64,000 nucleotides of DNA from Candidatus Bathyarchaeota archaeon (GCA_963739305.1 CAVTZU010000008.1:16879-80878); one strand, 5' to 3'. Numbered from the stretch's first letter, positions 14,938 to 39,967 are shown. Program-made: numbers and translations. The notes: a model not told the origin generated them from the sequence alone.

Positions 14938-16383
14938 CTACTCTTCTATTTTGTATTTCTTTCGTATTTCCGCGATTTTTGCTTCCAATTCCTTCGGCAG
15001 CGGTTCTGGTTTGTGAGTTTTGAGTATCTCCTCTGCTCGCTCATGAGCTCTCTGCAGAAAAGTCTTTGCTCCCAGCTCCATCCATTTTTCTCGACTGTGT
15101 TTTTCGAACACGAAGTCTTTTCGAGGTCTCTGCTCCTTCTCGTACCACGTGAGAGTGTGTCTCTGATCCAAGAAGTGTCCGATGCGTCTTCCCTTCTCAA
15201 TCTTGGAACAAACGTTCCTAATAATTTCTGCAGCCAAGGTTTCAGGAGTGACGTCTATGCCATCCAAGAGTCTGCGAGCGGCGATGACCATGTCATCGAT
15301 GAGGAGCAATAACTCATTGTTGAAGGCGCGGGTGTTGTCCAAACCATGAATCACTATGGTTCTGTTTCCTCCAAGCATCTGAGGGAGCAGGGTGAAACCC
15401 AATTCATACGCTTCCTGCATATCAAGCATGTGTGAATCAGGGGACACGGGGGATATTATCGGGACATCAATGTACCTCTCCAATTGTCCCATGGCGCAAG
15501 CTTGAACGAAGTCGCCGTGAGACGCAAGACTGACCATACCTGTTCTTTGATCGAAAGATTCGTGAACATTGATCCACAAGACAGGCATACCCTTATTTAG
15601 TAATTGCAGGATTACGTCTCCACTCAAGTACTCTGCCATCTTCTGAGCTAAGTCTCCAGCGATGGTAACAGGACCCGTGTCGCCCACGGGTGCCTCGGTT
15701 GCCAGAGCTGGCTGTATGCCCCATCTTGCAACGGCTTTGAGTGCATCACACGCCTGCTGAGTCCAGGCAAGGGGGGATACTGCGCATAGACAAACGGTCA
15801 TGAGAGCTCTTTTTTTGAGCTCCTCTTTTCCTCCTGCTATGGCCATGGCGAGTTCATAAGTCGGTTCGATGGACTGCGGCTCAAGCGTGCTGACGCAGAC
15901 GGGTTTCGTGGTGTTTCGAATTCCCATTTCAAAACCGTGGAACATGTACATTTCCTTGAATTGTGAAAGCATCGTAATGATCCATACGCCGTCAATCGTG
16001 TCAAGGTAGTCGCAGATCTTGACAAAGTCCTCAACGCGCTCTTTCGTTGTAGGCACGTATTTTTCAGTCACAGCATCATAGTAGTTCACGTTTAGCACGT
16101 GCGGAACGATATACGGATACTTCTGTCTTCCAATAGTCATGTCCTTCTTCGGGTCTCTGCCGCATATCGTGACTTCCTTAGGGGTGTGACTCAGACAGTC
16201 TTTTACGAGCCATTCTGGAAAGTGAACGAGGTTGTGTCCTCCGACGTCGCATCCGTTGTTAGCTAGCAGTTTCACAATTCCTTCGTCCTGAACTTGTACG
16301 CCAACATTCTTGAGCAAGTATAGTGCAGTTGTGTAAATCGCATCCAATTCATCCTCATTCAGTATTTTCAGATTCGGTTTCAT
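14938..16383 (-). CDS. Trimethylamine methyltransferase (MttB) superfamily protein, non-pyrrolysine
   Basis: SPL, GPVTIAG, DSHMLDMQEAYE, GIDVTPETLA, GHFL..HT, HKPEPLP; no in-frame TAG. Confidence 0.88.
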   Translation of the reverse strand: MKPNLKILNEDELDAIYTTALYLLKNVGVQVQDEGIVKLLANNGCDVGGHNLVHFPEWLVKDCLSHTPKEVTICGRDPKKDMTIGRQKYPYIVPHVLNVNYYDAVTEKYVPTTKERVEDFVKICDYLDTIDGVWIITMLSQFKEMYMFHGFEMGIRNTTKPVCVSTLEPQSIEPTYELAMAIAGGKEELKKRALMTVCLCAVSPLAWTQQACDALKAVARWGIQPALATEAPVGDTGPVTIAGDLAQKMAEYLSGDVILQLLNKGMPVLWINVHESFDQRTGMVSLASHGDFVQACAMGQLERYIDVPIISPVSPDSHMLDMQEAYELGFTLLPQMLGGNRTIVIHGLDNTRAFNNELLLLIDDMVIAARRLLDGIDVTPETLAAEIIRNVCSKIEKGRRIGHFLDQRHTLTWYEKEQRPRKDFVFEKHSREKWMELGAKTFLQRAHERAEEILKTHKPEPLPKELEAKIAEIRKKYKIEE

Positions 16384-16414
16384 GTTACAACCTAACCTCC
16401 AACATTATGTGAGT

Positions 16415-17068
16415 TCAGTTGCGCTTTTGAAGCGCCTTTTTGATTACTTCCACGCCTTCAACAGCATCTGAGGCGTAGTAGTCGGCTTTAACCTCTCTGG
16501 CCCAGTCTTGGTCAGTTGCCCCTCCTCCGACCATGGTCTTCACTTTTTCACGAATTCCTGCTTCCCTGAGTTTTTCCTCAATTATCTTTTGCTGAGGTCT
16601 CGTCGTCGTCAGGAGCGCCGAGGAAGCGACCAAATCCGCTTTCACTGAAGCTGCCTTCTTCGCGAATTCTTCGGCGGGCACGTCGATTCCGAGGTCGAAG
16701 ACTTCGTATCCAGAAGTTTCAAGCAGCACCTTGAGTATGTCTTTGCCTATGTTGTGCACGTCGCCCCGAACGGTGCCCAAAACGATTCTTCCCTTCGACT
16801 CTCCAGTTCCTCGTTTTTCCTCTAGCAATCGCTGTTTTGCGATCTCTATCCCTGCCATGCATGCGTTTGAGGCAAGCAGGAGTTCTGTTAGGAATATTTC
16901 GCATCTACCGAACTTGTCGCCAATTTCTCTGATGGCGGGAGTCAGCCCTTCATTCAAGATTTTGAGAGGGTCGATGCCTCCATCGATGGCGTCTTTGACG
17001 AGTCTCTTGAGTTGATCTTCATCATAGCTCGCTATGGCTTCTTTCATGGCTTCAAAAGGATGGGTCAT
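16415..17068 (-). CDS. Methyltransferase corrinoid (B12-binding) protein
   Basis: GDVHNIGK, SALLTTT and MVGG B12-binding motifs. Confidence 0.93.
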   Translation of the reverse strand: MTHPFEAMKEAIASYDEDQLKRLVKDAIDGGIDPLKILNEGLTPAIREIGDKFGRCEIFLTELLLASNACMAGIEIAKQRLLEEKRGTGESKGRIVLGTVRGDVHNIGKDILKVLLETSGYEVFDLGIDVPAEEFAKKAASVKADLVASSALLTTTRPQQKIIEEKLREAGIREKVKTMVGGGATDQDWAREVKADYYASDAVEGVEVIKKALQKRN

Positions 17069-17107
17069 TTCTGTTCATTCACCTGACTGTGTTGGATTGA
17101 TTTTAGG

Positions 17108-17467
17108 CTATCGCTTGAAGTATTCTTTCTAGGTCTGCATCTTTCCATTCTTGGTTTCTACTATGCTGACTCCTTGAACCTCATTTTTCTTTCCAGTCAC
17201 AGGGTTCTTAAAGTCGACGAGCCATTCAACGACGACGCTGTCTTTTTTTTCGCAAACAAAGAGTTTCTTGGATTTGTAGCCTTCTATTTTCTTGAATTCA
17301 TCTTGCATGAAGGCCCTCAACGAATGTCTGCCTGAAACAGGCTTGTAAGGCTGTGCGTACACGACGTACGTGGCATCGTCATTGAATAGGTCCATCATCT
17401 TGTCGATGTCCTTTTTCACGATATATTGGGTGAAGGAATCAAACAGTTCGCCTGAATCGGGCGTCAT
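17108..17467 (-). CDS. NTF2/SnoaL-like protein with an in-frame TAG at 17129-17131
   Basis: DIDKMMDLFNDDATY..VSGR..VVEW..GVSIVETKNGK; after the TAG the frame continues KEYFKR, matching the usual terminal (W)xEYF strand. Confidence 0.75.
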
Positions 17468-17915
17468 CTGAAGGTCTCCTTTCAACTTGTGGTCGTAAAT
17501 GCTTTCTCATCGTATTTAGTTTTCTGCTTTTTTCTAAGTCCTTGTCAGGAGCATAAAGAAATCATGCACAGAATTCTTTGAGAATTTTAGCTTCAAGATG
17601 TTACGAACAAAATTCGTTTATTCAGAGTTCCAAACGCGCGCGAAAGAAACAAAAGAGAAGATAAGCAGCAGTTTCGTCGCACCGTGATTCCTTTGCTAGG
17701 ACTCATTAGTTCTTGAATGCAAAATCAAATAATAGTAGGCGGTGCGATGGCTTTCAAACATTGATACACCTACGCTTGAGCAAATTGTTCTCCCAGTATT
17801 GACAATCGTTGCCCTGGTTGCAGCGGTCGCTTTGATTGAGTCACCGAAGACGACAAAGCTCTCGCACGCGTTGGATAGCCGACACATCAAAGTAGACAAA
17901 AAACGGGAAGCCACG

Positions 17916-18089
17916 CTAAAGCATGCGCGTGGGCTTCTTCTTCAGAGTCTTTTTCCATTCTTCGAACAGACTCCAATATATACTGTCGACAGTCTCGTCT
18001 TGCAAGTTCCCCTCAGCAATGAACTTCTCGACGAAGTCATTCAGCTCCAAAGAGTTCCTGCACTTCCTGACATCACTAATATTCAGCAC
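17916..18089 (-). CDS. Small hypothetical protein, 57 aa (not in ORF track)
   Basis: AAGGAG upstream; MLNISDVRKCRNSLELNDFVEKFIAEGNLQDETVDSIYWSLFEEWKKTLKKKPTRML; directly downstream of the wHTH gene. Confidence 0.5.
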   Translation of the reverse strand: MLNISDVRKCRNSLELNDFVEKFIAEGNLQDETVDSIYWSLFEEWKKTLKKKPTRML

Positions 18090-18123
18090 AAGACCGACTC
18101 CTTGATTCTTTCCTCGGTTCTGG

Positions 18124-18423
18124 CTAAACTAGGAAGGGTGAAGAAATTCCAGAATCAAGTAGCAGAGCCATCCTCTTGAATAAGTCTAGAAACTCCTGGC
18201 CAGTTTCTGTTCTCTGATACGTCACTTTTCCTGCACAGGCACCCATCCGAACAAGATTACTTGAAGTCATAAGATTCAGGTACTCCCCTGATTGTGCGGT
18301 GCTCATATTACAGTGGGACATGATGTTGGACTTTCCTACTGGTATTCGCAGCTGCCTCAGAATCTCCGCAATGATCTGTAATCTGCTGCGGTTTCCGTCA
18401 GATACCTTTCTCAGATTTAACAC
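18124..18423 (-). CDS. Archaeal winged-helix transcriptional regulator
   Basis: RSRLQIIAEIL..KSNIMSHCNMS..YLNLM..YQRTETGQEFL pattern. Confidence 0.8.
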   Translation of the reverse strand: MLNLRKVSDGNRSRLQIIAEILRQLRIPVGKSNIMSHCNMSTAQSGEYLNLMTSSNLVRMGACAGKVTYQRTETGQEFLDLFKRMALLLDSGISSPFLV

Positions 18424-19183
18424 GTATAACACGATCCATAAAAAAGCAGGCCAGTTCTTATGCAAATGATGTTGCGATAAGTCGGTAGCACGCCTTTCCT
18501 GCAATATAGATTATCAGCCCGGCTTATAAGGGTGAGAGGCCAAAAGTCGCTTTTTTACGTTTTCTTCTTTTTCTTCGCGCCACTGAGGCACGCGCCATTC
18601 AGTTGCTGGGTCAACTTCATGAAAGGAAGGGCAAAATGGCTATGTTCGCTTATCATTGGGAAGGCTGAGACCGCAAAAGCGGGGATGTCTTGTTCTATGT
18701 AGATATGCGTTAGAAATATCGTGGAAACACGCTGGACTTGGCGTTCAGACGAGCGCGCGCTAAGCGAAGAGAAAGGGACTTGTAGAAAATAAAAATGTTT
18801 TCGTAAGCTACGGACGCCTTCACCTATGGAGACGCACTGGCTAGAAGAGTCCGTGCTTCTTCTAGTCTCCTCACTTTCTCAACGTTACTCTTTCCATGTT
18901 TCCATTTTCCTCGACTTTTCATTCTTTTCAAAAATCGTTCTTTTTTCGCCTGCTTCTTCTTCGATCGTTTCAAACAAATCTTCCTTCCAAGAATCAAATA
19001 GTAACAACAAACAAGGCTTATAACCTTCACCTAATGCGAACTGAATTCTGTGGAGTGCAAGCGTGGTAAAAAGAAAGAGGGATTGGCGGGGGAACTGCGA
19101 AATACAATTGCGTAAATCTCGACTCGAAATCTGGATTCTGACTTCAGAATTGCCTTATCCAAGGAGCGTGAAAAAATATGGAT

Positions 19184-20339
19184 ATGGCAAAAATGGAAGA
19201 CTGGCTTTCGGCTCTTCCAAGCAAATACACGAGAAAGACTTACAAAAGCGGAATCAAGAAGTTTGAGGAGTTTTACGGCAAACCTATCGAGAGTCTTGTT
19301 GATCTCAGTGACGAAGAACTGGGACACAGCATTGACAAATTCTATTCGTGGCTGAAGCAAGAGAAAGGGCATCCTCAAAACACTTGCCGAAACTATGTTA
19401 ACTGTCCGATTCAATGTATGAAATACTTCAGCAAAAATCCGAAATATAAGAAGAGTCTAGGCATTTACCGAAGCACCATAACCACTAGAGACCACCCGGT
19501 AGAAATCTCGGAGATTCAAAAGATGGCGAGTGTTGCCGATTTGAGAGAGCAGATTCTCTCGGAGGCCTATCTTTTGGGTTTGAGGGTTCGTGATGTAGCT
19601 TGCTAGCTAGCAAGCAGCGAACCCCCAATCCCAGTTATGATAAATTGCGTAAAAGAGGAAACCGTGGCCCATGCCTTCATAAACGAAGAATTCAAAGCTC
19701 TCCTAGACAAGTATCTGCCAACGATTGACAAGGAAAACCCGTATCTGTTTCAGAGCAAGAACTGGCAAGGAATCAAGAGAAAAGGCATTCAAAAGCTGAG
19801 TTCAAGGCAAATCTCAAACATCTTGAATGATTTGATTAATAGGGCTGGCATACAGAAGAATGCCGTGTTCGCCTGGCACACGGGAAGAAAGCTCTTTATG
19901 ACAACCGCAACGGAACTAGGCGCTCCCACCTTAGGCTTCAAAACTGATGGTTGGCAAGTCAATTAAAGCCAGCGACGAAACTTACAACATCCGAACAAGG
20001 TTGAAGCCAGACTTCATCAAAATAAGCAACGTATTGAAGTTGTTCCTGAAAGCTACTAAGGACACTGGAAAAGTCAAGAACTTGGAGAACACGATATTTG
20101 AGTTGTAGAGGCATATCACAGTGCTAACGACGACCTTAGAAGTGTTGCAAAAGGGATTCGGGGTGACTGAAGAGGCTGTGAGCGAGTTGCTCAAACCCCT
20201 ACTACAGAAGAAACTTCTGGAGAGAACAGTAAACGCTGGAACGACTGGCCTAGGCTTTCTGCAAGTGGAAAACGTGAACAAAATGTCACCCAAGAAGATA
20301 GTCTCCAGATACCTTGAGATTACAAAAGGCAAACGATGA
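19184..20339 (+). pseudogene. Degenerate tyrosine recombinase/integrase
   Basis: SAM-like N-domain (TRKTYKSGIKKF), LGLRVRD, WHTGRK (HxxR), KLMVGK..DETY; TAG stops at 19604, 19932, 20106 and a frameshift near 19925. Confidence 0.85.
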
Positions 20340-20480
20340 AAAGTTGCCACAACTACGGGAAACGTGACAGCTAATCCCTTTTCTTTCTAGGTCTAAGTCT
20401 TGGCGCGCGCGCTAAATCAAAAAGGTGACAAAACGTCTATATATATTAGGTATCTGAGCTTGAACTAGCGGAGATCGAAT

Positions 20481-20669
20481 ATGAAACCTGAACATTATAA
20501 ACCGATAAGGAAAACAAAGCCCAAACGAAAAGGCAAGATTAGTGCGCGCAAAAGTCGAATGCTTGCAGTGGCTCAAAAATGGAAACCCATTACTTCTCCA
20601 CGATTGCGTGAAGCTTACTCTACTAAAATAGAATGGGTAAGGAAGCTAATTCCCAAATTGAAAAACTAA
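20481..20669 (+). CDS. Small basic hypothetical protein
   Basis: TATATATA upstream, GGAG before the ATG, K/R-rich 62 aa. Confidence 0.45.
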   Translation: MKPEHYKPIRKTKPKRKGKISARKSRMLAVAQKWKPITSPRLREAYSTKIEWVRKLIPKLKN

Positions 20670-20809
20670 GCAGAAGCGCCGGAAGAAAAAGAAGAGCCCA
20701 GATAAGCCGCACGCGCTTTTTACGTTTCGCTTAATTATCCTAATGTTGTTCTTTTCCTGACAACTATCGGAAGTACCAAATCGTGAATTACTATTCTGCT
20801 CATTTGAAA

Positions 20810-21037
20810 TCACTCCATCTTGACTTTAAGAATCCATTTTCCTTTAGGATTGCCGTCTAAATCGACTCCTCTGCCCTTCAACACTTTGAATTCGCCCTGT
20901 TTTAAATCCAAATTTTGCATAGCGAATTCTGTTGCTTGTTTAATCGTACAGAATCCAGCTGGTTTCTTTGCCTCAGTCTCTGTAAATCCCCATTCTGGTG
21001 GAACTAAACTGCCTATTGGCAAGACTTTCAATCTCAT
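20810..21037 (-). CDS. Small hypothetical protein
   Basis: GAGGAGG Shine-Dalgarno upstream; 75-aa protein-like ORF. Confidence 0.55.
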   Translation of the reverse strand: MRLKVLPIGSLVPPEWGFTETEAKKPAGFCTIKQATEFAMQNLDLKQGEFKVLKGRGVDLDGNPKGKWILKVKME

Positions 21038-21294
21038 TCCTCTTTTACCTCCTCAAGGGAAATAGCAGAACAGTCTATGAATTGACAGTCTCGTCACTTC
21101 ATATCTTCGCTCCAGCTAGTATAGAATGGAAATCGCTGTTAAAGCTTGCTTATCCCTCTAAGAAATCTCCTTCAAGCCAATTTTATGTATCAGAGAAAAA
21201 TAGGGAATGTGCGGGAAGCGTCTATACACTGGCAACATAAGAACCCTTATAAAGGGTATTTAAGCATCCGCTACGCTATAAGAAGTGGTTTCTA

Positions 21295-21855
21295 ATGCCG
21301 AAGACTAAAGCCATAGTAAACATTCAAAACGTTGTTGCCACTGCCACCTTAAACCAGAAAGTTGACTTAAACGCCGTCGTGAAGAGTTATCCTGGAGTTG
21401 AATACCACCCAGAGGAATTTCCAGGACTTGTGTTTAGGCTTAAGAGACCGAAGACCGCCACGTTGATTTTCAACTCTGGAAAAATGGTTTGTACAGGCGC
21501 CAAATCAGAGCAGGAAGCGCGCAGGGCTGTTATGACAGTTGTTAAAGAGCTGAAGAAGGGCGGAATAATCATCATCAGTAGGCCGGATTTGAAGGTTGTG
21601 AACATGGTTGCTTCTGCAAGCTTGGGCGGAAGGGTAGACTTGGAACTGGCAGTGAGCGCGCTTGGAAAAAGCATGTATGAGCCGGAGCAGTTTCCAGGAT
21701 TGATCTACAGGATGGACGAGCCTAAGGTGGTTATACTGATATTCGCAAGCGGAAACCTTGTCTGCACCGGAGCGAAGAAAGAACAGGACGTTTATGACTC
21801 AGTGCACAAGCTTCACGCAAGGTTGGAGGAACTAAACCTCATATTCTACGAATAA
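21295..21855 (+). CDS. tbp: TATA-box binding protein
   Basis: Two TBP repeats: NVVAT..YHPEEFPGLVFR..LIFNSGKMVCTGAK and YEPEQFPGLIYR..LIFASGNLVCTGAK. Confidence 0.97.
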   Translation: MPKTKAIVNIQNVVATATLNQKVDLNAVVKSYPGVEYHPEEFPGLVFRLKRPKTATLIFNSGKMVCTGAKSEQEARRAVMTVVKELKKGGIIIISRPDLKVVNMVASASLGGRVDLELAVSALGKSMYEPEQFPGLIYRMDEPKVVILIFASGNLVCTGAKKEQDVYDSVHKLHARLEELNLIFYE

Positions 21856-21961
21856 AAACTTCATAGTTAATCGCCTATCGCCTTCGCGCGTGCGGGGGGC
21901 TTTGACCTAAACTGTTAAATTCTGTTGGTTGTTATCCGAAGAATAAGATCTGGAGGTCGTT

Positions 21962-22288
21962 ATGCCGATTAAGCGCATGCGCTCTGAGTTAGATTGTGTG
22001 GCCGAGGTTTTGAAGAGACATATGGACTGTATTGACCGATCCAAGGATTTTATTGAAGCTGATAAGACTGAAAGGTTACCGGATAAGGTTTGGATACTTG
22101 TTGAATTGCGATATGACGCAGCCAGAGTATTAACAATCGATAGAATATTTGAAAGCAAAGAGACAGAGCCAAATACTATGCCTTCCGGTAATAGATTCAA
22201 GAATATGACAGAGAATTACAGTAATCACTCGTATGTGAAGGGACTGCTGAAGTTGATCAATGAAGATATTCAGAAAACTTGCAAGTAA
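21962..22288 (+). CDS. Hypothetical protein
   Basis: GGAGG RBS; 108-aa ORF without recognised motif. Confidence 0.5.
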   Translation: MPIKRMRSELDCVAEVLKRHMDCIDRSKDFIEADKTERLPDKVWILVELRYDAARVLTIDRIFESKETEPNTMPSGNRFKNMTENYSNHSYVKGLLKLINEDIQKTCK

Positions 22289-22363
22289 TCGCATGTTTTC
22301 GAGCCCTTCTTTTTCTATTATGGGCAAATCGCTGCATGATGCAGCTTGATTTTGTCGAGAGAC

Positions 22364-22567
22364 TCAGAATTCCGTAAGGTCGCCGTTGTCGATGACGATG
22401 AAAACTTGGTCATGCTTCTCAAATTGCTCGTAGCCTAGAATTCTACGCGGAAAATGTTGACCAAAATAGTGAAAGGCAAAGGGTAAACCGCCTTTCGAGA
22501 AGGATAATACGACAAGCTTCGCGTTCAAGGATTCATACAGATTTGTTTGTTTCATCATTTCAACCAT
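22364..22567 (-). CDS. Small hypothetical protein downstream of tfb
   Basis: Co-oriented, 18 nt after the tfb stop; protein-like composition. Confidence 0.45.
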   Translation of the reverse strand: MVEMMKQTNLYESLNAKLVVLSFSKGGLPFAFHYFGQHFPRRILGYEQFEKHDQVFIVIDNGDLTEF

Positions 22568-22585
22568 CCATTTTTGTTAATCCCT

Positions 22586-23590
22586 CTAGGGTTCGCGTAA
22601 TTCTAGCTTCAGCTGCCTTTTCAGGGTCTTGTAGCGGTTTCTCACCGTGACCTCAGTGACGCCTGCAGCTTCAGCGATGTACTTCTGTGTCTTCTTCTCG
22701 TTGTTCTGCAAACAAGCAATGTACAGTGATGCAGCAGCCAATCCCATAGGGTCCTTTCCGGCAGCAGCCCGCTTCTTTCTGGCTTCTCGAAGAATCTGTA
22801 TAGCAATTCCCTGGGTCTTGCCCGAAATGCCTGTTCTTTCAGCGATTTTTGAAACGTACGTAAGGGGGTCAGCGATGGGCATGTGCATATCAAGTTCACG
22901 TAGCAAAAGCCGGTAGCAACGGGCAACGTCCTTTTTATCGACTAGGCTTGCCTCTGCGATTTCATGAAGTGCTCTTGGGGTTCCACTTCCGCGGCAAGCC
23001 GCATAAACCGCAGCAGCCGTTATGGCTGCGATAGACCTTCCGCGGACTAAGCTCTTATCTAAAGCTTTACGGTAAATAACCGCAGCCTTCTCTTTGATTG
23101 GCCGTGGAATGTAGACCCTGTCTGACAAGCGGTCAAGTTCAGCCATTGCCTGGGCTAGGTTTCTGTCAACTGAAGAATGCGCCCTAGAACGGATCTGCCA
23201 TTTTCTCAGGCGCCACATCAGCAGGCGCGTTGATAATGGAAGTTTTCTTCCGAAGGCGTCACGGTCAATCTGGCCTATGGCCGTTGACAAGCCTTTATCA
23301 TGCACAGAATAAGATGTTGGCATCCCAACACGGCTTCTTGACGCTTTCTCTTCTTGGGTAAATGCACGCCATTCGGGTCCTTTATCCATCATTTGCCCGT
23401 ATAAGACGAGCCCACAGTCGCCGCAAACGGTCTCACCCGTATCATAGTCATGGATAAGGTTTACACTACCACATTCCGGACACTTATCCCGCAACGTTTG
23501 CTGAGACCGTGTCACTTTCTTTCTTTTTTCCATCTTTTCGGTCTCTATCATATGGAGTAGGCTCATCACAGGACAACCTTCACAAAACAC
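22586..23590 (-). CDS. tfb: Transcription initiation factor IIB (true start probably later, e.g. 23533)
   Basis: CPECG..CGDCG Zn ribbon, GPEWRAF B-reader, two cyclin repeats, AGVTEVTVRNRYK. Confidence 0.97.
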   Translation of the reverse strand: MFCEGCPVMSLLHMIETEKMEKRKKVTRSQQTLRDKCPECGSVNLIHDYDTGETVCGDCGLVLYGQMMDKGPEWRAFTQEEKASRSRVGMPTSYSVHDKGLSTAIGQIDRDAFGRKLPLSTRLLMWRLRKWQIRSRAHSSVDRNLAQAMAELDRLSDRVYIPRPIKEKAAVIYRKALDKSLVRGRSIAAITAAAVYAACRGSGTPRALHEIAEASLVDKKDVARCYRLLLRELDMHMPIADPLTYVSKIAERTGISGKTQGIAIQILREARKKRAAAGKDPMGLAAASLYIACLQNNEKKTQKYIAEAAGVTEVTVRNRYKTLKRQLKLELREP

Positions 23591-23698
23591 AATTCCTCAT
23601 ATTACGTATCAGAATTTGAGCGATTTGATTGTTAGTCCGCAAAGCGCGCGTTAGAAAGAAGGATACTAAGGGTTGATGCTTTGTTCGGCAGGGTTTTC

Positions 23699-23986
23699 CT
23701 ACTCTTTTGCAAGGGTTATTTCCATTGTTGAAACCATCCGTGCTCTGTTTTCGCCTTCTCTTGCTGGCATCTCCTCTGTTCCTATCGCGACTTTGCTCAC
23801 TTTTAAGTCTTTTAGGAAGCGATTTCTGGTTATTTCAGCTGCGTCAACTGCCGTGGTGATCGCTTGTCCTCGGGCTTTCAAGGTTATTTCTTTAGCATTG
23901 GATGCCGATAGGCTTGTAATAATCGCTAGAACATAGCTCATTACTGGTTTACTTCCAATGAAAACAATTCCCGATTTTTCCGACAT
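23699..23986 (-). CDS. albA: DNA/RNA-binding protein Alba
   Basis: IGSKPVMSYVLA, KARGQAITTAVDAAE, VSTMEITL. Confidence 0.95.
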   Translation of the reverse strand: MSEKSGIVFIGSKPVMSYVLAIITSLSASNAKEITLKARGQAITTAVDAAEITRNRFLKDLKVSKVAIGTEEMPAREGENRARMVSTMEITLAKE

Positions 23987-24421
23987 TTCCATCAATCCTT
24001 TCATCATTAATTGTAACGTACAACGTTGCTGTGTTCTTCTCGTCCTTCAACAACAGAACGCTACTGACCTATACTACACACTTTCTTATAAAGCGATTAA
24101 ACAGCAGAGCAGCCTGAGGATATTTTCACGCGGCTCCCTTATCCTAGATTCCTATCTTAGACACAGCATTCACTTTGCATTTAGGTGATAGGTCATAATT
24201 AGGTGCAGAAAACTCGTATATGCGCGCGCTAACCCCCGCTCCTTTGCCGCCATCCACACATAGCGCGCTAGGGCGTTGCTTAATTCAGATTTTAATAGTT
24301 TTTATTCGGTTTCATGAGTAGTTGGCAGCTTTTGGTTGAACAATCCTCCCATCAGAGGCATCTCAATACGCACCGCGCGCGCTAACTTTACTCCTGCACC
24401 TTTCCCCAAAAGGAAAGAGAA

Positions 24422-24495
24422 GGGTTTCCAACGATTCAACCCTGTAGCAAACTGACAGGCACCAGTTGCATTTGTTGGATTGAACCTGGAAACCC
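24422..24495 (-). ncRNA. Candidate small hairpin RNA
   Basis: TATA-like TTTTATTTA ~22 nt upstream; three stacked stems closed by GGGUUUCCA/UGGAAACCC; pyrimidine tract immediately 3'. Confidence 0.4.
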
Positions 24496-24527
24496 ATCCA
24501 AGACTGAAGGATGCCTAAATAAAAGTG

Positions 24528-24770
24528 TTAGCGCGCTGGCTTGTCCCTAAAATGGTTAAAAATGATATTTATTCCTTTTTTGTGGTTTGGGGGCGGTTTC
24601 GAGGCGCACTTGCTGCTAGCTTTCACGACCACGCCTTGGAGCTCCAAGCGGGCTAGGTGAAGCCTCAACGTGTCATGGGAAACCCCCACTTCCCGCAGGA
24701 TCTGCCATAGCTTCCATGATTTACCATCCCTCAAAATGCCAGGATTTGCCTATCAAACAAGGTCAAATTG
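24528..24770 (-). pseudogene. Winged-helix protein remnant
   Basis: FDRQILA / LRDGK..QILREVGVSHDTLRLHLARLELQGVVVK; frameshifted and truncated. Confidence 0.5.
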
Positions 24771-24815
24771 AACCCAAAAAGGCAAAGAAGAATTAAGACC
24801 AATTTCGGGCGCGCG

Positions 24816-25085
24816 CTAGCCAGGTAGTTCGACTCTTGCCCCTAATGCTTGCCCAGGTATGCCTTTGTGGAATTTGGCTGTGACAACGCCTTTCTTGCCG
24901 TGCAAGCTCATGATTCTGCCGATGAAGCTGTTCTTTCCATACTTCAGAACCACTTTTCGACCAATGAGCTGGCCTGACTTAGAGACAGTATCTTCACCAA
25001 TGATCCGGATGAGGCACCATTTTGGCATCTGTGTTCTGATGCCTATTCGATAGTTCACTATTGTTCCATAAGCAGGTTGATGCAT
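24816..25085 (-). CDS. rpl35ae: 50S ribosomal protein L35ae
   Basis: VNYRIG.RTQ..CLI..LIGRKV..GRIMSLHGKKGVVTAKF..GIPGQALG. Confidence 0.92.
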   Translation of the reverse strand: MHQPAYGTIVNYRIGIRTQMPKWCLIRIIGEDTVSKSGQLIGRKVVLKYGKNSFIGRIMSLHGKKGVVTAKFHKGIPGQALGARVELPG

Positions 25086-25244
25086 AAACATACGCCATTG
25101 CAACACCCTTCTAATGCATACCTCGCTCTTAAACATGCATAATTTGATTTAAGGGTGCTCTGTTTATAAGCCCCGGCGCGAACCTTAATTCAGCGTGTAA
25201 GAAGCGATTTTTGCACAGCAGCATACGAGGAGTTGAAATAGTCA

Positions 25245-25385
25245 TTGTACGAGAAAGAAATGCATAAGGCAGTTTGTGCTGATTGTGGAAAAGACTGTGA
25301 AGTTCCATTCAAGCCTGACCCGAGCAGACCTGTTTACTGTCGAGATTGCTATTCGAAACGTGGACCACCAAGAAGAAGATTCTAA
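25245..25385 (+). CDS. CxxC-x17-CxxC small zinc-binding protein, 46 aa (not in ORF track)
   Basis: MYEKEMHKAVCADCGKDCEVPFKPDPSRPVYCRDCYSKRGPPRRRF; GAGGAG upstream. Confidence 0.9.
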   Translation: MYEKEMHKAVCADCGKDCEVPFKPDPSRPVYCRDCYSKRGPPRRRF

Positions 25386-25463
25386 GTTAAGCCAGCAACG
25401 CTAGCTTGGCATCATTTTTCTTCCATTTTTCACATTTTCTAATTACGCTCAACACGAATAGAG

Positions 25464-25715
25464 GTGATCAATAGATTGCAGAAAAGAATGTTCGAAGTCA
25501 CGTGTACGGACTGTGGCAGCGCCACTACTGTACCTTTCAAGCCCACTGTCGGGAAACCAGTTTACTGCAGAACATGCTTCTCGAAACATATGCTGAAGCG
25601 ATCAGAAAAAGAGGGTATGAACTTCAGTTTTGATCCGAAACAGGCATGGGCACGTCGAGGAGACGACTGGAAAGGAAGAATCGAGCAAGAACCCACCAGC
25701 GTCTTCAACCGATAA
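25464..25715 (+). CDS. CxxC-x17-CxxC zinc-binding protein with C-terminal extension
   Basis: CTDCG..VPFKP..KPVYCRTC. Confidence 0.85.
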   Translation: MINRLQKRMFEVTCTDCGSATTVPFKPTVGKPVYCRTCFSKHMLKRSEKEGMNFSFDPKQAWARRGDDWKGRIEQEPTSVFNR

Positions 25716-25983
25716 TGCAGTGTTCTGAGACAGAAATTGTTCCGAGTGCGCCAAGAACAAAGGCCGAAACACTCGAAACACTCTCTGAACTGAACGCAAG
25801 GCTGTGCCAGATGGTACTTTTACAAATCCATCCGCATAGACCTATATACTTGATGATACATCCTTTAACAGTTAGGATTCTCTAGAGGAAGAGTTCAATC
25901 GCAGAGTATGCTTTTTCTCTGATCGTTCTGACTAGTCACGACTCGTAGGCAACCATGTTCTCATGGTTCTGAAGGTGCGAAAA

Positions 25984-26289
25984 TTGGGTAAAAGAAAAGT
26001 CCTTAATGAAGAAAACTTGGAAAATATGTTGTATCCAAGCAAGAATGATGTGCTAGGAATAGCGGTCAAAATGCTTGGCTTTGACCGAATAATGGTCAAG
26101 TGCCAAGATGGCAAGGAACGATTGTGCCGGGTTCGAGGCAAACTCAAAAGACGCGTGTGGATCCGAGATGGAGACATCGTGTTGGTTTCTCCTTGGGACT
26201 TCCAGTCAGACACGAGAGGCGACATATTCTGGCGGTACAGGAAGAACCAGACTGAGCAATTGAGGCTCAAAGGCTACCTCACGATGTAG
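25984..26289 (+). CDS. eif1a: Translation initiation factor aIF-1A
   Basis: MLGFDRIMVKC.DGKERLCRVRGKLKRRVWIRDGDIVLVSPWDFQ..RGDI.WRY. Confidence 0.95.
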   Translation: MGKRKVLNEENLENMLYPSKNDVLGIAVKMLGFDRIMVKCQDGKERLCRVRGKLKRRVWIRDGDIVLVSPWDFQSDTRGDIFWRYRKNQTEQLRLKGYLTM

Positions 26290-26359
26290 CTGCTGTGAAG
26301 GTTTCGAAATTGACCAGCATTTCCGAAACAGGTGAAGTATCGAAAATGAGTGAGAGATC

Positions 26360-27004
26360 TTGAGAAGGAAAACTTCATCAACTAGCGAGTATCTCGCGTT
26401 TCTTTCAGCAAAATACGAGGTTGACCCAGACAGTCTTTTCTACGCGTTGATTGTGGCAGAAGAAAGCAAAAAGTCCGTTTGCGGAGACCTTTCGATCGAG
26501 TGGCGTGGCGAAACGCGGGATAAGGTTATGTTTCTAATTCTGACGAGTTCCAAAGTTGTTGCACAGCTTTCAGTATTCAAACAATTCCTTTTGGAGAAAG
26601 GCCATCCGATCAGAGATTTCATGGAGACTGAAAAGATACGCAGACTCCTGGCTAAGAGAGATAGGCAATCATCGGTTCTTCCGATCAGAGATCTGCGGAG
26701 TGGGATGACGCAGATTTGTCTGAAGGCCAAGGTTTTGGAGATTCCAAAGCCAACCATGGTCTACACACGCTATGGAAATTACGCGAGCGTAGCGAATGCA
26801 CTGATAGCAGATGAAACTGGAACGATTAGGCTGTGTCTCTGGAACGAGCAGATATATTGCATTTCTGCTGGAGACACTGTTCAGATCCAGAATGCAAGGG
26901 CTTCCACATTCAAAGGCCAAAGGCAATTGAACATTGGAAGAAAGGGCTTGCTCAGCAGTGTTGATGTGTCAAACTGTCAAGCGAAAGTGTTGATCAGCTC
27001 TTAG
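26360..27004 (+). CDS. OB-fold (RPA/SSB-like) protein with uncharacterised N-terminal domain
   Basis: IRDLRSGM..KAKVLE..IADETGTIRLCLWNEQ..GDTVQIQNA..FKG..QLNIGRKG. Confidence 0.8.
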   Translation: MRRKTSSTSEYLAFLSAKYEVDPDSLFYALIVAEESKKSVCGDLSIEWRGETRDKVMFLILTSSKVVAQLSVFKQFLLEKGHPIRDFMETEKIRRLLAKRDRQSSVLPIRDLRSGMTQICLKAKVLEIPKPTMVYTRYGNYASVANALIADETGTIRLCLWNEQIYCISAGDTVQIQNARASTFKGQRQLNIGRKGLLSSVDVSNCQAKVLISS

Positions 27005-27039
27005 GTCCTGCTAGCCAAAGAAAGGCGATTGAGGAATAG

Positions 27040-27324
27040 TTGTTGAAAATCGTAAGAGGCTGGAGAAAAATGGACCGACAGCAAGGATTCATTAATGAGA
27101 CCACGGGACAGAATCTGATCGTCACAAAGAAAGAGTTTGGAAGGCATTACGTGGTGCTGCTGTTTCCCAGGGTAAGAATTGATGATAAAGGAGAGACTAT
27201 TTCACCAGAGTATGCGACTGCATCGAAAGCAGAAGCCTATGCGTTGAAATGGATGGAGAAGCATCCGAGAGGAGCCGAACCAGCCCCTGAGCAAAGTTCA
27301 GGTGGAAGTGACGAAAATGAGTAG
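27040..27324 (+). CDS. Hypothetical protein
   Basis: GAGG RBS; co-oriented in the operon. Confidence 0.6.
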   Translation: MLKIVRGWRKMDRQQGFINETTGQNLIVTKKEFGRHYVVLLFPRVRIDDKGETISPEYATASKAEAYALKWMEKHPRGAEPAPEQSSGGSDENE

Positions 27325-27415
27325 GAAAGATAAGCCTACGGGAAAAGCAATCGATAGGCAGAAGGGGCATCAAACAAGAAGGGCTAGCGGCGGAAAGAAA
27401 CAGAAGAGAAGATAA
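27317..27415 (+). CDS. 32-aa highly basic peptide (not in ORF track)
   Basis: MSRKDKPTGKAIDRQKGHQTRRASGGKKQKRR; start overlaps the upstream gene end; T-run after the stop. Confidence 0.5.
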   Translation: MSRKDKPTGKAIDRQKGHQTRRASGGKKQKRR

Positions 27416-27782
27416 GAAGCAACTTTTTTCGCATTGTCATGGTTATGACTTGCGTTGACCACTTGTTTTGCAGGCAATGCTTGCCGGCAGATCACCTGTA
27501 ACAGAGCGCGTTAAACTCGAAGAAAAAGGGGAAGAGTGGGTATTGAGTGAGGGCCTACTCAACATGGTTTTTGAGTGTTTTCAGCTCTAAAACACCCTAC
27601 CTCCCGGCCTTTTTTTCTTGCGGAGTACTGTCGATGGAGCTTTCGCTGGGGCGCTGGCTGATTCTTGCCGTGGTTTTCTTTTGGATTTGCATGTTTACTT
27701 TGATAGAAAAGGTACTGTTTCGGTGCGCGCTGCGCTAGGTCTGACCCAAAACTCTAAATGGGAAAGGACCAGATGACTTTTC

Positions 27783-28697
27783 ATGAACATTCAACCGGTC
27801 CGTTCCTTAACGATCATTACTCTTGTTGAAAATTCAGCCATGTCATTTCTGCTCGGTCAATGGGGTCTCTCATTTCTCTTGGAGTTTAGTGACGCTCAGA
27901 ATCGCCAAAGAAAAATCATCTTCGACACCGGAAAGGACAAGCGTGCACTGCTCCAGAATATAAAACTCCTGAAAAAAGACCTTAGCGAGGTTGACTGTGT
28001 TGTATTGAGCCACGGTCATCTAGATCACACAGCGGCTACGGTGGAGATCGTCAAAGCCGCTGGAGGAGTAAAGGTCTACGCGCACCCACACACGTTTCTC
28101 CCTCGCTTCCAGAAAACCAAGGACGGAAAGACAAGACGAATAGGAGTTCCTGAAAGAGAAGGCGTAGCAGACATTGAGAAAGCGGGAGGAACCGTCGTTC
28201 ACACGTCAAGACCCACCGAAATATTGCCGGGACTGTGGACTACAGGCCCGATCCCAAGGACATCAGAATTCGAAAATGTTATGGATCTCCCCGAAGGGGA
28301 AAGATTGACGATTTGTCTTGATGGAAAGGAAACTGATGATCACATTCGCGATGACCAGGCTCTTTATGCACAAGTCAAGGACGTGGGGGTTTACGTCATC
28401 ACAGGCTGCGCCCACTCTGGTCTCATAAATACCCTGTCTCATATCCAAAAAGTAGGAGGCTTCAAACAACTTGCTGGAGTGATCGGGGGTACTCACCTCA
28501 TCGGTCGTTCGGATGAATACATTCAGCGAACGATCACAGATCTTAGCCATGTTGGAATGAACTTGATCTCACCTTGTCACTGCACAGGTTTCAAAGCCCA
28601 AACGAGACTCTGGCAAACATTCCCGAATGCTTTTGTCTTGAACTATGCTGGCAGAATTATCGAAGCTGGCAAAGAGCCAAAACCTCGTGTAATTTGA
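27783..28697 (+). CDS. MBL-fold metallo-hydrolase (MJ0448/7,8-dihydropterin-related synthase-like)
   Basis: WGLSF, FDTG, SHGHLDH, DDQAL, TGCAHSG, GGTHL, PCHCTG. Confidence 0.88.
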   Translation: MNIQPVRSLTIITLVENSAMSFLLGQWGLSFLLEFSDAQNRQRKIIFDTGKDKRALLQNIKLLKKDLSEVDCVVLSHGHLDHTAATVEIVKAAGGVKVYAHPHTFLPRFQKTKDGKTRRIGVPEREGVADIEKAGGTVVHTSRPTEILPGLWTTGPIPRTSEFENVMDLPEGERLTICLDGKETDDHIRDDQALYAQVKDVGVYVITGCAHSGLINTLSHIQKVGGFKQLAGVIGGTHLIGRSDEYIQRTITDLSHVGMNLISPCHCTGFKAQTRLWQTFPNAFVLNYAGRIIEAGKEPKPRVI

Positions 28698-28803
28698 GCG
28701 TGCGTAGCCCCCGCGCGCGCGATGTGCGATATACACGAGACTAAAACAGACACTAAAGTAGGAAATACGGGAATGAAGGGAAAGTGATGGTACGATGTTT
28801 TTG

Positions 28804-29276
28804 CTATTCTTTAGTCTTTGCAGAAGGCTTACGCATCGAACCCAAATATAGCCCTATGAAAACAAGCACCAAATCAAAAACAGCGTTCAAAGCTGTGTTG
28901 ACATACAGGTACATTGTCTCGAAAGTGAACCAATCCATGTTTGTCCATGAACCAGTGGAGAACATTTTCTGAAGAGCTTCATCAGCCACAGCATTGTAAT
29001 GTCCAACGCCACTGTAAAGCATCAGACTAATGAAATAGTTACAAAAGTGAACAATACAACTATTTTACCAATTGACCTCATCCTAGACTCCTCTTGTATC
29101 TTCTCAGCGAAGACGTAACCAGCAACCAAACTACCAACAAAAAGAGACACACTTCCAGTAGCCAATAGTCCTGGATAAGAACCCGCTGGAACCAACACCA
29201 ATCCTAGAACAGCAAATAGCAAAACGAAAATCACAGACGCAGATGCCGTAGCCATAATGACATCCCCAAACTTCAA
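28804..29276 (-). CDS. Hypothetical 4-TM membrane protein, frameshifted near 29022
   Basis: Two abutting hydrophobic ORFs (29022-29276, 28804-29022) read as one protein; GAGGAGGTGA RBS. Confidence 0.6.
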
Positions 29277-29356
29277 CCTATCACCTCCTCTGAAGCCAAA
29301 AACACATATGTGCTCTCTATTCAGCTATAACTTTTCCCTAAAACCAAAAGTTGGGT

Positions 29357-29378
29357 TTGGGGGTAAAGTTTTATCCCA
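29357..29378. repeat. 22-bp quasi-palindromic site, left copy of an inverted pair
   Basis: TTGGGGGTAAAGTTTTATCCCA; exact reverse complement of 30020-30041. Confidence 0.85.
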
Positions 29379-29387
29379 AACACACAG

Positions 29388-29954
29388 CTAGCTACGATAT
29401 CTCATTAGCTCCGCAGCGTTATCAGGCAAGTGGTCTATTCCACCAAACTCTTTGACAACAATCGACTCTATCTTGGACTTCAGTTCTTCCCTAATGCCAG
29501 GGTAAGTCATTTCTTCTTCTCCGCCAATGCTCTCACAGTCATCCTCGACTATAATATCTGGCAGGACTTTCTCCGCCACGTCTTTGTAATCCTCACCTTC
29601 TTTTCTGGAAAGTAGTTGTCCTTGAGGGAATTTGAATTTCTTGAGAATTTTTCGTATGATGTCGATTTCCTCTGATTTCGTTCTGGATGTAAGATACACA
29701 ATAGTTGCACCTTGTTTCTTCCAGGCTCCGATTTTTCTTACGCTGTTCCCTATTGGAACTGAAGCTGCGAAATATTCAGGAGAAGGTGCGTCACCAGATT
29801 TCCGCAGTTTTTCAAGCTCTTCTTTCGAGAGGTTTGACCATTTCTTGACTTGCTTGACTATCTCTTCTCTTGGAATACCAATCCATTTCTTGTTTGTTAG
29901 AATAGTTCCCTCGGTGAAAACCAGAATCTTGACAGACAGGTCTACGCCCTCCAA
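29388..29954 (-). CDS. Hypothetical HAD-like fold protein
   Basis: ILVFTEGTI (degenerate DxDGT), YLTSR, IIVEDD. Confidence 0.7.
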   Translation of the reverse strand: MEGVDLSVKILVFTEGTILTNKKWIGIPREEIVKQVKKWSNLSKEELEKLRKSGDAPSPEYFAASVPIGNSVRKIGAWKKQGATIVYLTSRTKSEEIDIIRKILKKFKFPQGQLLSRKEGEDYKDVAEKVLPDIIVEDDCESIGGEEEMTYPGIREELKSKIESIVVKEFGGIDHLPDNAAELMRYRS

Positions 29955-30019
29955 GCTGGACCTTACAATTTCCTAAGCAGTCGGAGCGTATCTTATGGCT
30001 TGTGGTAGGATTTGGTTGG

Positions 30020-39463: not shown

Positions 39464-39967
39464 TTGGCAGTTGAAGGATTTACCGGAGCTAAACAACCCG
39501 TAGACGTCAAAATCGGCGAACTCAACCCATCTTCCCGAGCCGTGAACGTGCTGGCCAAGGTCTTGTCCAAGAGCGAAGTCAGGAACGTTGCCGCAGGAAG
39601 AGATGGAGAACCGCACAAAGTCAGCGATGCCATGGTCGGAGACGAGACAGGATGCATCTACCTAACACTTTGGGACGACAACATTGAAAAAGTCAACGAC
39701 GGAGACACTGTGAACATCAAAAACGGTTACATAAACCTGTTCAGAGGCAACATGCGACTGAACGTAGGGAGATACGGAACGCTCGAGATAGCGGAAACAC
39801 CACTCGCAGGCGAAGTGAACACGGAGAACAACATGTCAACCAAAGTGTACGAGCAAGAGAGAAGACCATTCAGAGGCGGCGGAAGAGGAGACTTCGGCGG
39901 CGGCAGACGCGATTTCGGCGGAAGAGACAGAGACAGAAGAGGCGGCTTCCGACCGAGACGTTACTAA
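39464..39967 (+). CDS. ssb: Single-stranded DNA-binding protein (single OB fold, G/R-rich tail)
   Basis: VGDETGCIYLTLWDD..GDTVNIKNGY..LNVGRYG; RGG-rich C-terminal tail. Confidence 0.88.
   Translation: MAVEGFTGAKQPVDVKIGELNPSSRAVNVLAKVLSKSEVRNVAAGRDGEPHKVSDAMVGDETGCIYLTLWDDNIEKVNDGDTVNIKNGYINLFRGNMRLNVGRYGTLEIAETPLAGEVNTENNMSTKVYEQERRPFRGGGRGDFGGGRRDFGGRDRDRRGGFRPRRY

Follow-up and report, generated by a model that had tools for sequence, protein, structure and literature searches.

Some archaea carry two genes for the translation initiation factor aIF1A, one of which lies in an aIF1A-RIO1-KH cluster, and integrons, in which a tyrosine recombinase stands beside an array of short gene units with a recurring end sequence, have been reported in this domain too. 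Expansions of TBP and TFB, both basal transcription factors, are the main known archaeal route to alternative transcription programmes and have been studied almost only in haloarchaea. Two reports describe lineage-specific TBP and TFB expansions there, including Halobacterium NRC-1 (PMC2121645, PMC3261711), and a third describes zinc binding for two small CxxC-x17-CxxC proteins of Methanosarcina mazei (PMC12704099). Here we describe a locus of an uncultured Candidatus Bathyarchaeota archaeon in which genes for TBP, TFB, Alba, ribosomal protein L35Ae, two CxxC-x17-CxxC zinc proteins (zf1 and zf2), aIF1A, an SSB-like OB-fold protein (OB) and a basic peptide lie within positions 21295-27415 of a window of 64,000 nucleotides, the whole stretch of DNA that was analysed (GCA_963739305.1 CAVTZU010000008.1:16879-80878). 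A sequence-only reading had taken this block for a single module of spare information-processing genes. Our analysis indicates that it is probably a composite of two adjoining parts: an inherited cluster on the right, and a variable stretch on the left that holds lineage-specific paralogues of TBP, TFB and Alba.

The window (G000:C8:16879-80878; genomes, contigs and loci are denoted by G, C and L numbers) comes from a metagenome-assembled genome (MAG) of 2.3 Mb in 36 contigs, 97% complete with 7.8% contamination, and the block sits inside an 81-kb contig. Window proteins were searched with Pfam and NCBIfam profiles, and the locus was compared with sister genomes of the same genus, among them G001 (a single contig, 97% complete) and G002 (98% complete), and with 20 loci of relatives through neighbourhoods anchored on L35Ae. 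The profile searches confirmed that the genes named in the sequence-only reading are present and intact, and they are under purifying selection: the median ratio of nonsynonymous to synonymous substitution rates (dN/dS) against relatives was 0.04 for TFB, 0.05 for aIF1A, 0.11 for TBP, 0.12 for zf2, 0.14 for both zf1 and OB, 0.29 for Alba, 0.34 for the open reading frame (ORF) u94 and 0.44 for L35Ae. The genes are distributed over both strands in at least five units (TBP with u108; Alba-TFB-u67; u68; L35Ae; zf1-zf2-aIF1A-OB-u94).

The right part (24816-27415) reads, from its distribution among relatives, as a vertically inherited cluster, kept throughout the genus and, in part, in the wider family. 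The full order, with rpl35ae (24816-25136) on the minus strand and zf1 (25245-25385), zf2 (25464-25715), aIF1A (25963-26289), OB (26360-27004) and u94 (27040-27324; 94 residues, no Pfam family) on the plus strand, was found in four genomes of the genus (G001, G002, G003 and G008), and a looser version was found in two other genera (G012, G020). Across the 20 L35Ae loci, the neighbours included OB in ten (one of them weak), a zinc-finger gene in nine, aIF1A in seven and u94 in six; Alba was a neighbour in two, TBP in one and TFB in none. Profile scores supported the assignments. L35Ae reached 48.7 bits with the Pfam L35Ae domain (threshold 27) and 75 bits with the NCBIfam equivalog, below its cut-off of 85, while zf1 and zf2 (PF23477/TIGR04272) scored 69.7 and 62.9 bits with TIGR04272 (threshold 36), and aIF1A (TIGR00523/PF01176) scored 76 bits against 30.2 and, with TIGR00523, 110.7 against 102.9.

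Whether these genes are spare, as had been proposed from their unusual surroundings, depended on the gene. The usual aIF1A-RIO1-KH and gar1-tfb contexts are indeed absent from the block and occur elsewhere in the genome, the former at C8:3699-5387, where the other aIF1A (C8:5082-5387) adjoins RIO1 and KH, and the latter at C35:32217-33438. Further copies were found of TBP, TFB, Alba, aIF1A, OB and the zinc proteins, but rpl35ae is present once, as confirmed by relaxed tblastn. Two real aIF1A loci were found, 66% identical to each other; a third match, on C31, is due to a second assembly of the start of C8 (99%). The window-type aIF1A is present in the genus and in seven other genera of the family, and no aIF1A besides it was found in G001 and G002, in which RIO1-KH lacks an adjoining aIF1A (G001:C1:306493-307272, L186; G002:C9:54846-55616, L187). 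Being the sole type found in these two genomes, the window-type protein apparently serves as a working translation initiation factor able to stand alone rather than as a reserve, and neither it nor the single-copy rpl35ae would be spare. The notion of spare copies holds better for the window TBP, which falls within a genus-only expansion clade.

The left part is absent or different in sister genomes. This variable stretch (19089-24807) lies between a conserved element, X (18833-19052, continuing to 19088), and rpl35ae. In G001, X is followed after 113 bp by L35Ae, and window positions 19089-24807 have no counterpart; in G002, the same interval is filled by OB'-TBP-glycosyltransferase-Alba (OB' being an OB paralogue); and in G003 and G008 other genes abut L35Ae. 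The stretch itself could be divided into units. The first (19089-20395), comprising an integrase remnant and u72, had no counterpart in any fetched locus. The second (20396-21886) holds u62, u75 and TBP, ends at (GC)n runs and is contiguous in L074, another Bathyarchaeia chromosome. The third (21887-22596), with u108 and u67, was found here only, whereas the fourth (22597-24223), with TFB and Alba, is contiguous in L068, L072 and L073. The last (24375-24536) is a second repeated element, Y.

The TBP of the window (21295-21855, plus strand, 186 residues) has two tandem TBP repeats (PF00352, E 6e-60) and the length of about 180 residues expected of the family; NCBIfam TBP models match it with scores below their equivalog cut-offs. 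Five TBP copies are present in the genome, and the window copy is 88% identical to that on C14, 85% to C11, 83% to C17 and 58% to C15. In a quick IQ-TREE analysis of 43 TBPs, three groups were seen: an old divergent clade that includes the C15 copy; a group of single-copy TBPs of other genera together with the C17 copy, which we therefore take as the probable canonical TBP of this genome; and a genus-only clade of 13 rows (Shimodaira-Hasegawa-like approximate likelihood-ratio support 92) that contains the window, C14 and C11 copies. The nearest relative of the window TBP in the tree is a G002 copy, at 96%. With half of the repeat matches taken as the gene count, the genus has 3-5 TBP genes in its larger genomes, and most other genera of the family have 1-2. 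A decayed TBP copy (G000:C27:3136-3542, a 27-codon fragment, one TAA) lies beside a CxxC-x17-CxxC gene.

The TFB gene (22586-23590, minus strand) more likely starts at 23566 than at 23590, judged by alignment with orthologues. It encodes a Zn ribbon and two TFIIB repeats (PF08271 and two PF00382; 411 bits with NF001658, cut-off 384), and the Zn ribbon, B-reader, two cyclin repeats and helix that reads the B-recognition element (BRE) are intact, with the motifs CPEC...CGDC and VTEVTVRNRYK conserved. There are three TFB copies in the genome. The window copy is 89% identical to that on C25, the widespread Bathyarchaeia type, and 48% to that on C35, the gar1-linked canonical copy; the BRE-reading helix is identical in all three, and the B-reader region is the main site of differences. 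The four sister genomes checked (4/4) each hold three TFBs, with identities of 92-95% for the window type, 87-89% for the C25 type and 47% for the canonical type, and a 98%-complete genome of another genus holds two. In a tree of 84 relatives, 68 fell in the C25-type group and 16 were of window type.

Alba (23699-24007, minus strand; PF01918/TIGR00285) scored 62.5 bits against a Pfam threshold of 25 and 102 against 88 for TIGR00285. Of its four genomic copies, three are of the window type (83-85% identical), those on C13 and C6 having 85% and 84% identity to the window copy, and that on C35 is divergent (52%); the window type forms a family-level clade with 1-4 copies per genome. Paralogous loci within the genome share gene-sized DNA only, 585-896 nt at 76-89% identity, with unrelated flanks, which marks them as dispersed duplicates and not strain variants. 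Taken together, these comparisons indicate that the extra TBP, TFB and Alba are lineage-specific paralogues that would have been duplicated within a Bathyarchaeia genus or family.

The three genes also tend to occur together. Among 80 TFB neighbourhoods, 12 contain the window-type TFB; Alba is directly upstream on the same strand in 6/12 and TBP is convergent with TFB in 3/12, and both arrangements are also found on contig C33 of G002, which carries Alba, TFB and TBP together. This recurrence of the triad in sister species without the integrase argues that it was inherited in the genus and shuffled locally, not carried by an integrase, and with the presence of the window-type TFB in 4/4 sister genomes it speaks against the horizontal transfer that had been suggested. 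In two other families Alba adjoins aIF1A (G040:C1:1759619-1760301) or TBP (G038:C15:14520-15564), and thus linkage among these small genes is wider than the genus.

On the composite reading, the right part would consist of ordinary working genes of the lineage, inherited vertically, and the left part would be a variable stretch between X and rpl35ae that here contains a decayed integrase, a TBP unit and an Alba-then-TFB unit. TBP, TFB and Alba would have been duplicated in the genus or family and kept by purifying selection, the triad taking varying order and place, and units may have moved via recombination between dispersed repeats (X, Alba upstream regions and GC palindromes). The extra TBP and TFB could then give alternative pre-initiation complexes, by analogy with haloarchaea. 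Several points weigh against this account. In the source MAG contamination is 7.8% and many contig ends are near-identical, and a mis-join at the junctions of repeated units is possible; an integrase remnant lies inside the variable stretch; the RNA contigs discussed below are 90-99% alike and mostly from relatives; and the TFB tree is poorly resolved (47/81 inner branches open), so that it does not fix the age of the TFB duplication. Moreover, Alba-TBP and Alba-aIF1A linkage is seen in other families too, and there may be a functional reason for the clustering that a purely historical account misses.

The integrase remnant raises the possibility of a different origin, in which the 5.7-kb variable stretch is what is left of one mobile element that carried TBP, TFB and Alba as cargo and whose integrase placed it immediately 3' of rpl35ae. 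The gene in question is a tyrosine-recombinase pseudogene (19178-20108, plus strand) with an in-frame TAG at 19604-19606 and a frameshift near 19950. It gave weak N-domain matches only, and its HxxR and Tyr motifs were recognized by eye only. A pyrrolysine reading of the TAG was rejected, as no PylS scored above cut-off in the genome and the frameshift would stay anyway; the integrase is thus dead, as the sequence-only reading had it. It is unique in the genome and patchy in the order, with distant relatives in 21/150 other genomes (best identity 43%). The idea of an element gains from the position of this broken gene at one end of the stretch, from the absence of the stretch at the same site in G001 and from a right border exactly at the rpl35ae stop codon, which is itself part of a TA(GC)nTA-like run (24809-24818). 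In addition, 3' fragments of rpl35ae (21-40 codons) that could represent an att-like duplication were found far from the real gene, about 250 nt from OB'-TBP-Alba-X units, twice in G001 (G001:C1:1417954-1418073 and G001:C1:873614-873727) and once in G008 (G008:C4:125579-125644).

Segmental duplication accounts for these fragments just as well, the source being a G002-like arrangement with the unit next to L35Ae. The X-Alba-TBP-OB' unit is recurrent, G001 having two copies and G008, G005 and G002 one apiece, and such a source arrangement would mean that TBP and Alba paralogues beside L35Ae are old in the genus while the particular set changes. Other expected marks of an element were missing: direct repeats flanking the stretch amounted to short chance pairs only, no tRNA or known RNA that could serve as an integration target was found in 15000-30000, and there is no sharp break in GC content. 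The triad occurs in sister genomes, yet this integrase was found at 0/80 TFB loci and at 0/13 in a second locus set, and the unit that carries it (with u72) has no counterpart in relatives, whereas the adjoining units do. We therefore regard an element-borne origin as unlikely, for the stretch as a whole and equally for part of it, and on the composite reading the integrase would be an unrelated mobile-element relic.

The (GC)n motifs noted in the sequence-only reading proved to be a real feature of the genome. Alternating GC runs of at least 8 nt number 351, against about 46 expected from composition, and 262/351 (75%) lie in the roughly 15% of the genome left intergenic by a crude ORF call. 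The consensus around the runs is the palindrome TAGCGCGCGCTA, and this exact 12-mer occurs 29 times against about 0.3 expected, its reversed control being absent from every genome. Six sister genomes contain it 19, 17, 13, 9, 8 and 7 times, and four genomes of the genus that are smaller or less complete contain it 0-1 times; it was not found in 27/30 genomes of other genera, the remaining three holding 1-3. Seven TA-flanked GC runs lie between 18753 and 24816, and TA(GC)nTA-type runs were recorded at 20403-20412, 21885-21890, 23644-23650, 24222-24229, 24263-24268, 24374-24382, 24531-24536 and 24809-24816.

Borders of homology coincide with these runs. Between 17000 and 29000, a run is present within 25 nt of 8/27 homology-end clusters, and homology ends exactly at 21886 in five relatives and at 24223 in three. 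Genome-wide, 17/282 intergenic ends of intragenomic repeats were within 10 nt of a run, compared with 4.3 on average and at most 10 for random intergenic positions (300 draws). The association of the palindrome with unit borders is therefore real, and any mechanism read from it would be conjectural; of the junctions in relatives, only some carry a GC run. One could imagine that the basal-factor and chromatin genes are self-contained units (TBP, Alba-TFB, OB'-TBP, X and Y) that are cut and rejoined at TA(GC)nTA, cassettes being shuffled between loci and the SSB-like OB paralogues acting as dedicated partners of TBP and aIF1A. We hold this to be improbable as a whole.

Of the two repeated elements, X has a core of about 190 nt with 90-100% identity among paralogous copies and species, and it is more conserved than the adjoining protein genes. 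Copies were found at G000:C13:75292-75502 and in loci L035, L037, L038, L055, L056, L059, L066 and L076, and in seven loci X is the divergent upstream neighbour of the window-type Alba. Counted by codon position, its variable sites number 14/14/22, and X may be non-coding or may encode a small basic product. The divergent neighbourhood elsewhere led us to consider an inversion between X and the Alba upstream region; this was rejected, since X of the window continues up to 19088 just as it does in G001, and since three other genomes have the border of the Alba-TFB unit at 24223 with no full X. Y, which lies between two (GC)n runs and contains a long hairpin seen by eye, has a copy of 141 nt (G000:C13:75675-75814, 95.7% identical) beside the Alba gene of C13 and further copies in G001 (L076) and L073; it had no Rfam match.

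The proposal of the sequence-only reading, that the whole block is one co-regulated, possibly horizontally acquired module of spare paralogues that reprograms transcription, nucleoid and ribosome together under stress, cold shock or dormancy, fared less well still, and we consider it very unlikely. It could draw on the further genomic copies of most members, on the canonical tfb and aIF1A contexts lying elsewhere, and on the recurrence of Alba linkage to TBP or aIF1A in other families. Against it stand the single-copy rpl35ae, the aIF1A that is the sole type found in two sister genomes, the vertical conservation of the right half, the window-type TFB in 4/4 sister genomes, and the finding that the nearest relatives of every member are within the same genus. 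In place of one module there are two parts with different histories, divided among at least five units on both strands.

Two sediment metatranscriptome libraries were used, in which 5-7% of sampled words were present, and most matching contigs were 90-99% alike, hence from relatives and no guide to regulation. In some RNA contigs TBP's 3' end (21856-21866) is fused to 23692, 24421 or 25191, junctions that fit a different ordering of these units in relatives. In the two libraries there were no RNA contigs on the integrase, u108/u67 or OB/u94, which has no bearing on their expression.

A chimeric assembly, in which repeated units (X, Alba and TBP) were joined wrongly in a MAG mixing close strains, is the least probable explanation and can be largely discounted: there is 7.8% contamination, many contig ends overlap other contigs at 95-99% and the units recur in the genome with 76-96% identity, but the stretch is interior to an 81-kb contig, the DNA of paralogous copies diverges by 11-24%, enough for assemblers normally to keep them apart, and comparable mosaics occur in the single-contig sister genome. 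Contig ends of G000 are often duplicated in other contigs at 95-99% identity (C8:1-5442 matches C31:5451-1 at 99.2%, C29 the start of C35 at 99.4%, and C7 matches C31 at 98.4%). This strain-level redundancy inflated copy counts, namely by the third aIF1A match and a doubled zinc-finger match, and probably the contamination figure as well. The zinc-finger family accordingly occupies seven places in the genome, two of which are one locus assembled twice.

The OB protein matches PF21473 (42.8 bits, threshold 24), and five members of its SSB-like family are encoded in the genome. An AlphaFold2 model built with 18 relatives (predicted local distance difference test score 87) has two domains. Foldseek matched the C-terminal domain to 1o7i and 5d8f (E 1e-8), and no structural match was found for the N-terminal alpha/beta domain of about 100 residues. 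The predicted OB domain is therefore placed C-terminally, behind a domain of about 100 residues, rather than N-terminally with a flexible tail as in an SSB of the crenarchaeal/hSSB1 type, and the best NCBIfam SSB model gave 78 bits against a cut-off of 176. The genome's canonical SSB is probably a 167-residue protein at 39464-39967 of the window, whose SSB-like OB match (68.6 bits) is full-length.

Pairing of aIF1A followed by OB was also seen in G016, G019 and G029, the last from another family; a complex prediction for the two proteins scored 0.00, which is evidence neither way. One OB paralogue lies beside a zinc-finger gene on C35. On C11 (G000:C11:77950-79198) and in five loci of four sister genomes (L055, L056, L059, L066 and L037), an OB paralogue immediately precedes a TBP paralogue on the same strand, the two being about 13-40 nt apart. 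Near the canonical TBPs of other genera, no OB neighbour was found within 2.5 kb (0/20 loci).

Among the smaller ORFs, the basic peptide (27302/27317-27415, plus strand, 32-37 residues) overlaps u94, is conserved in five sister loci and, as read from 27317, ends in KGHQTRRxxGGKKQKRR; it has no Pfam family. Further copies are a paralogue on C13 (G000:C13:72565-72675) and those at L178 8299-8370 and L176 9611-9697, and the ending of the conserved peptide was also recorded as KGHQTRRxRGGKKQKRR. In two other genera (G013 and G018) a relative is no more than about 700 nt away from the window-type aIF1A. The orphan ORFs u108 (21962-22288, plus) and u67 (22364-22567, minus) have no Pfam family, no paralogue in the genome and no match in any fetched locus. 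The 68-residue u68 (24528-24734, minus), also without a Pfam family, looks by eye like a small helix-turn-helix protein. A dN/dS of about 1 makes u62 (20481-20669, plus) a doubtful gene; that of u75 (20810-21037, minus) is 0.12.

This locus shows that a striking gene cluster can arise where a conserved core adjoins a rearrangement hot spot, and comparison with described systems indicates which of its features are familiar. As in integrons, a tyrosine recombinase lies beside short units whose ends share a recurring sequence. Unlike integrons, the units point both ways with their own upstream regions, the recombinase is dead and absent from related arrays, and the recurring sequence is a palindrome of 10-14 nt, with no attC-like repeat family. 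This genus-specific palindrome at unit borders is a lead on genome plasticity. As in other archaea with two aIF1A genes, one lies in the aIF1A-RIO1-KH cluster; the difference is that only the second type was found in two sister genomes. The zinc proteins share with those of M. mazei the same domain (TIGR04272/PF23477), small size and a multi-copy family, and differ in that two copies stand between rpl35ae and aIF1A and that zinc binding is here predicted only. The modelled OB domain superimposes on Sulfolobus SSB (PDB 1o7i) and human SSB1/SOSS-B1 (5d8f, 4oww) with a root-mean-square deviation of 1.7 Å over 95-100 residues at 30% identity; unlike these proteins, OB is predicted to have an extra N-terminal alpha/beta domain, and its gene shows linkage with aIF1A, as that of another paralogue does with TBP.

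The closest likeness is with the haloarchaea. A literature search, limited to its top-ranked results, returned no paper on TBP or TFB paralogues in Bathyarchaeia, and the present analysis documents such an expansion in this uncultured and abundant group. The linked TBP, TFB and Alba paralogues, the SSB-like-then-TBP operon and the aIF1A-OB pair stand out as candidates for the tuning of transcription, chromatin and translation, and the palindrome-bounded units, together with the OB-TBP and aIF1A-OB pairs, offer leads to follow. As in haloarchaea, several TBP and TFB genes per genome are under selection and arose by lineage-specific duplication, and alternative pre-initiation complexes would be their presumed use. 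Unlike the haloarchaeal case, the expansion lies in Bathyarchaeia, comprises five TBPs and three TFBs in which the BRE-reading helix is the same throughout, and joins the extra TBP and TFB with Alba as a recurrent triad.

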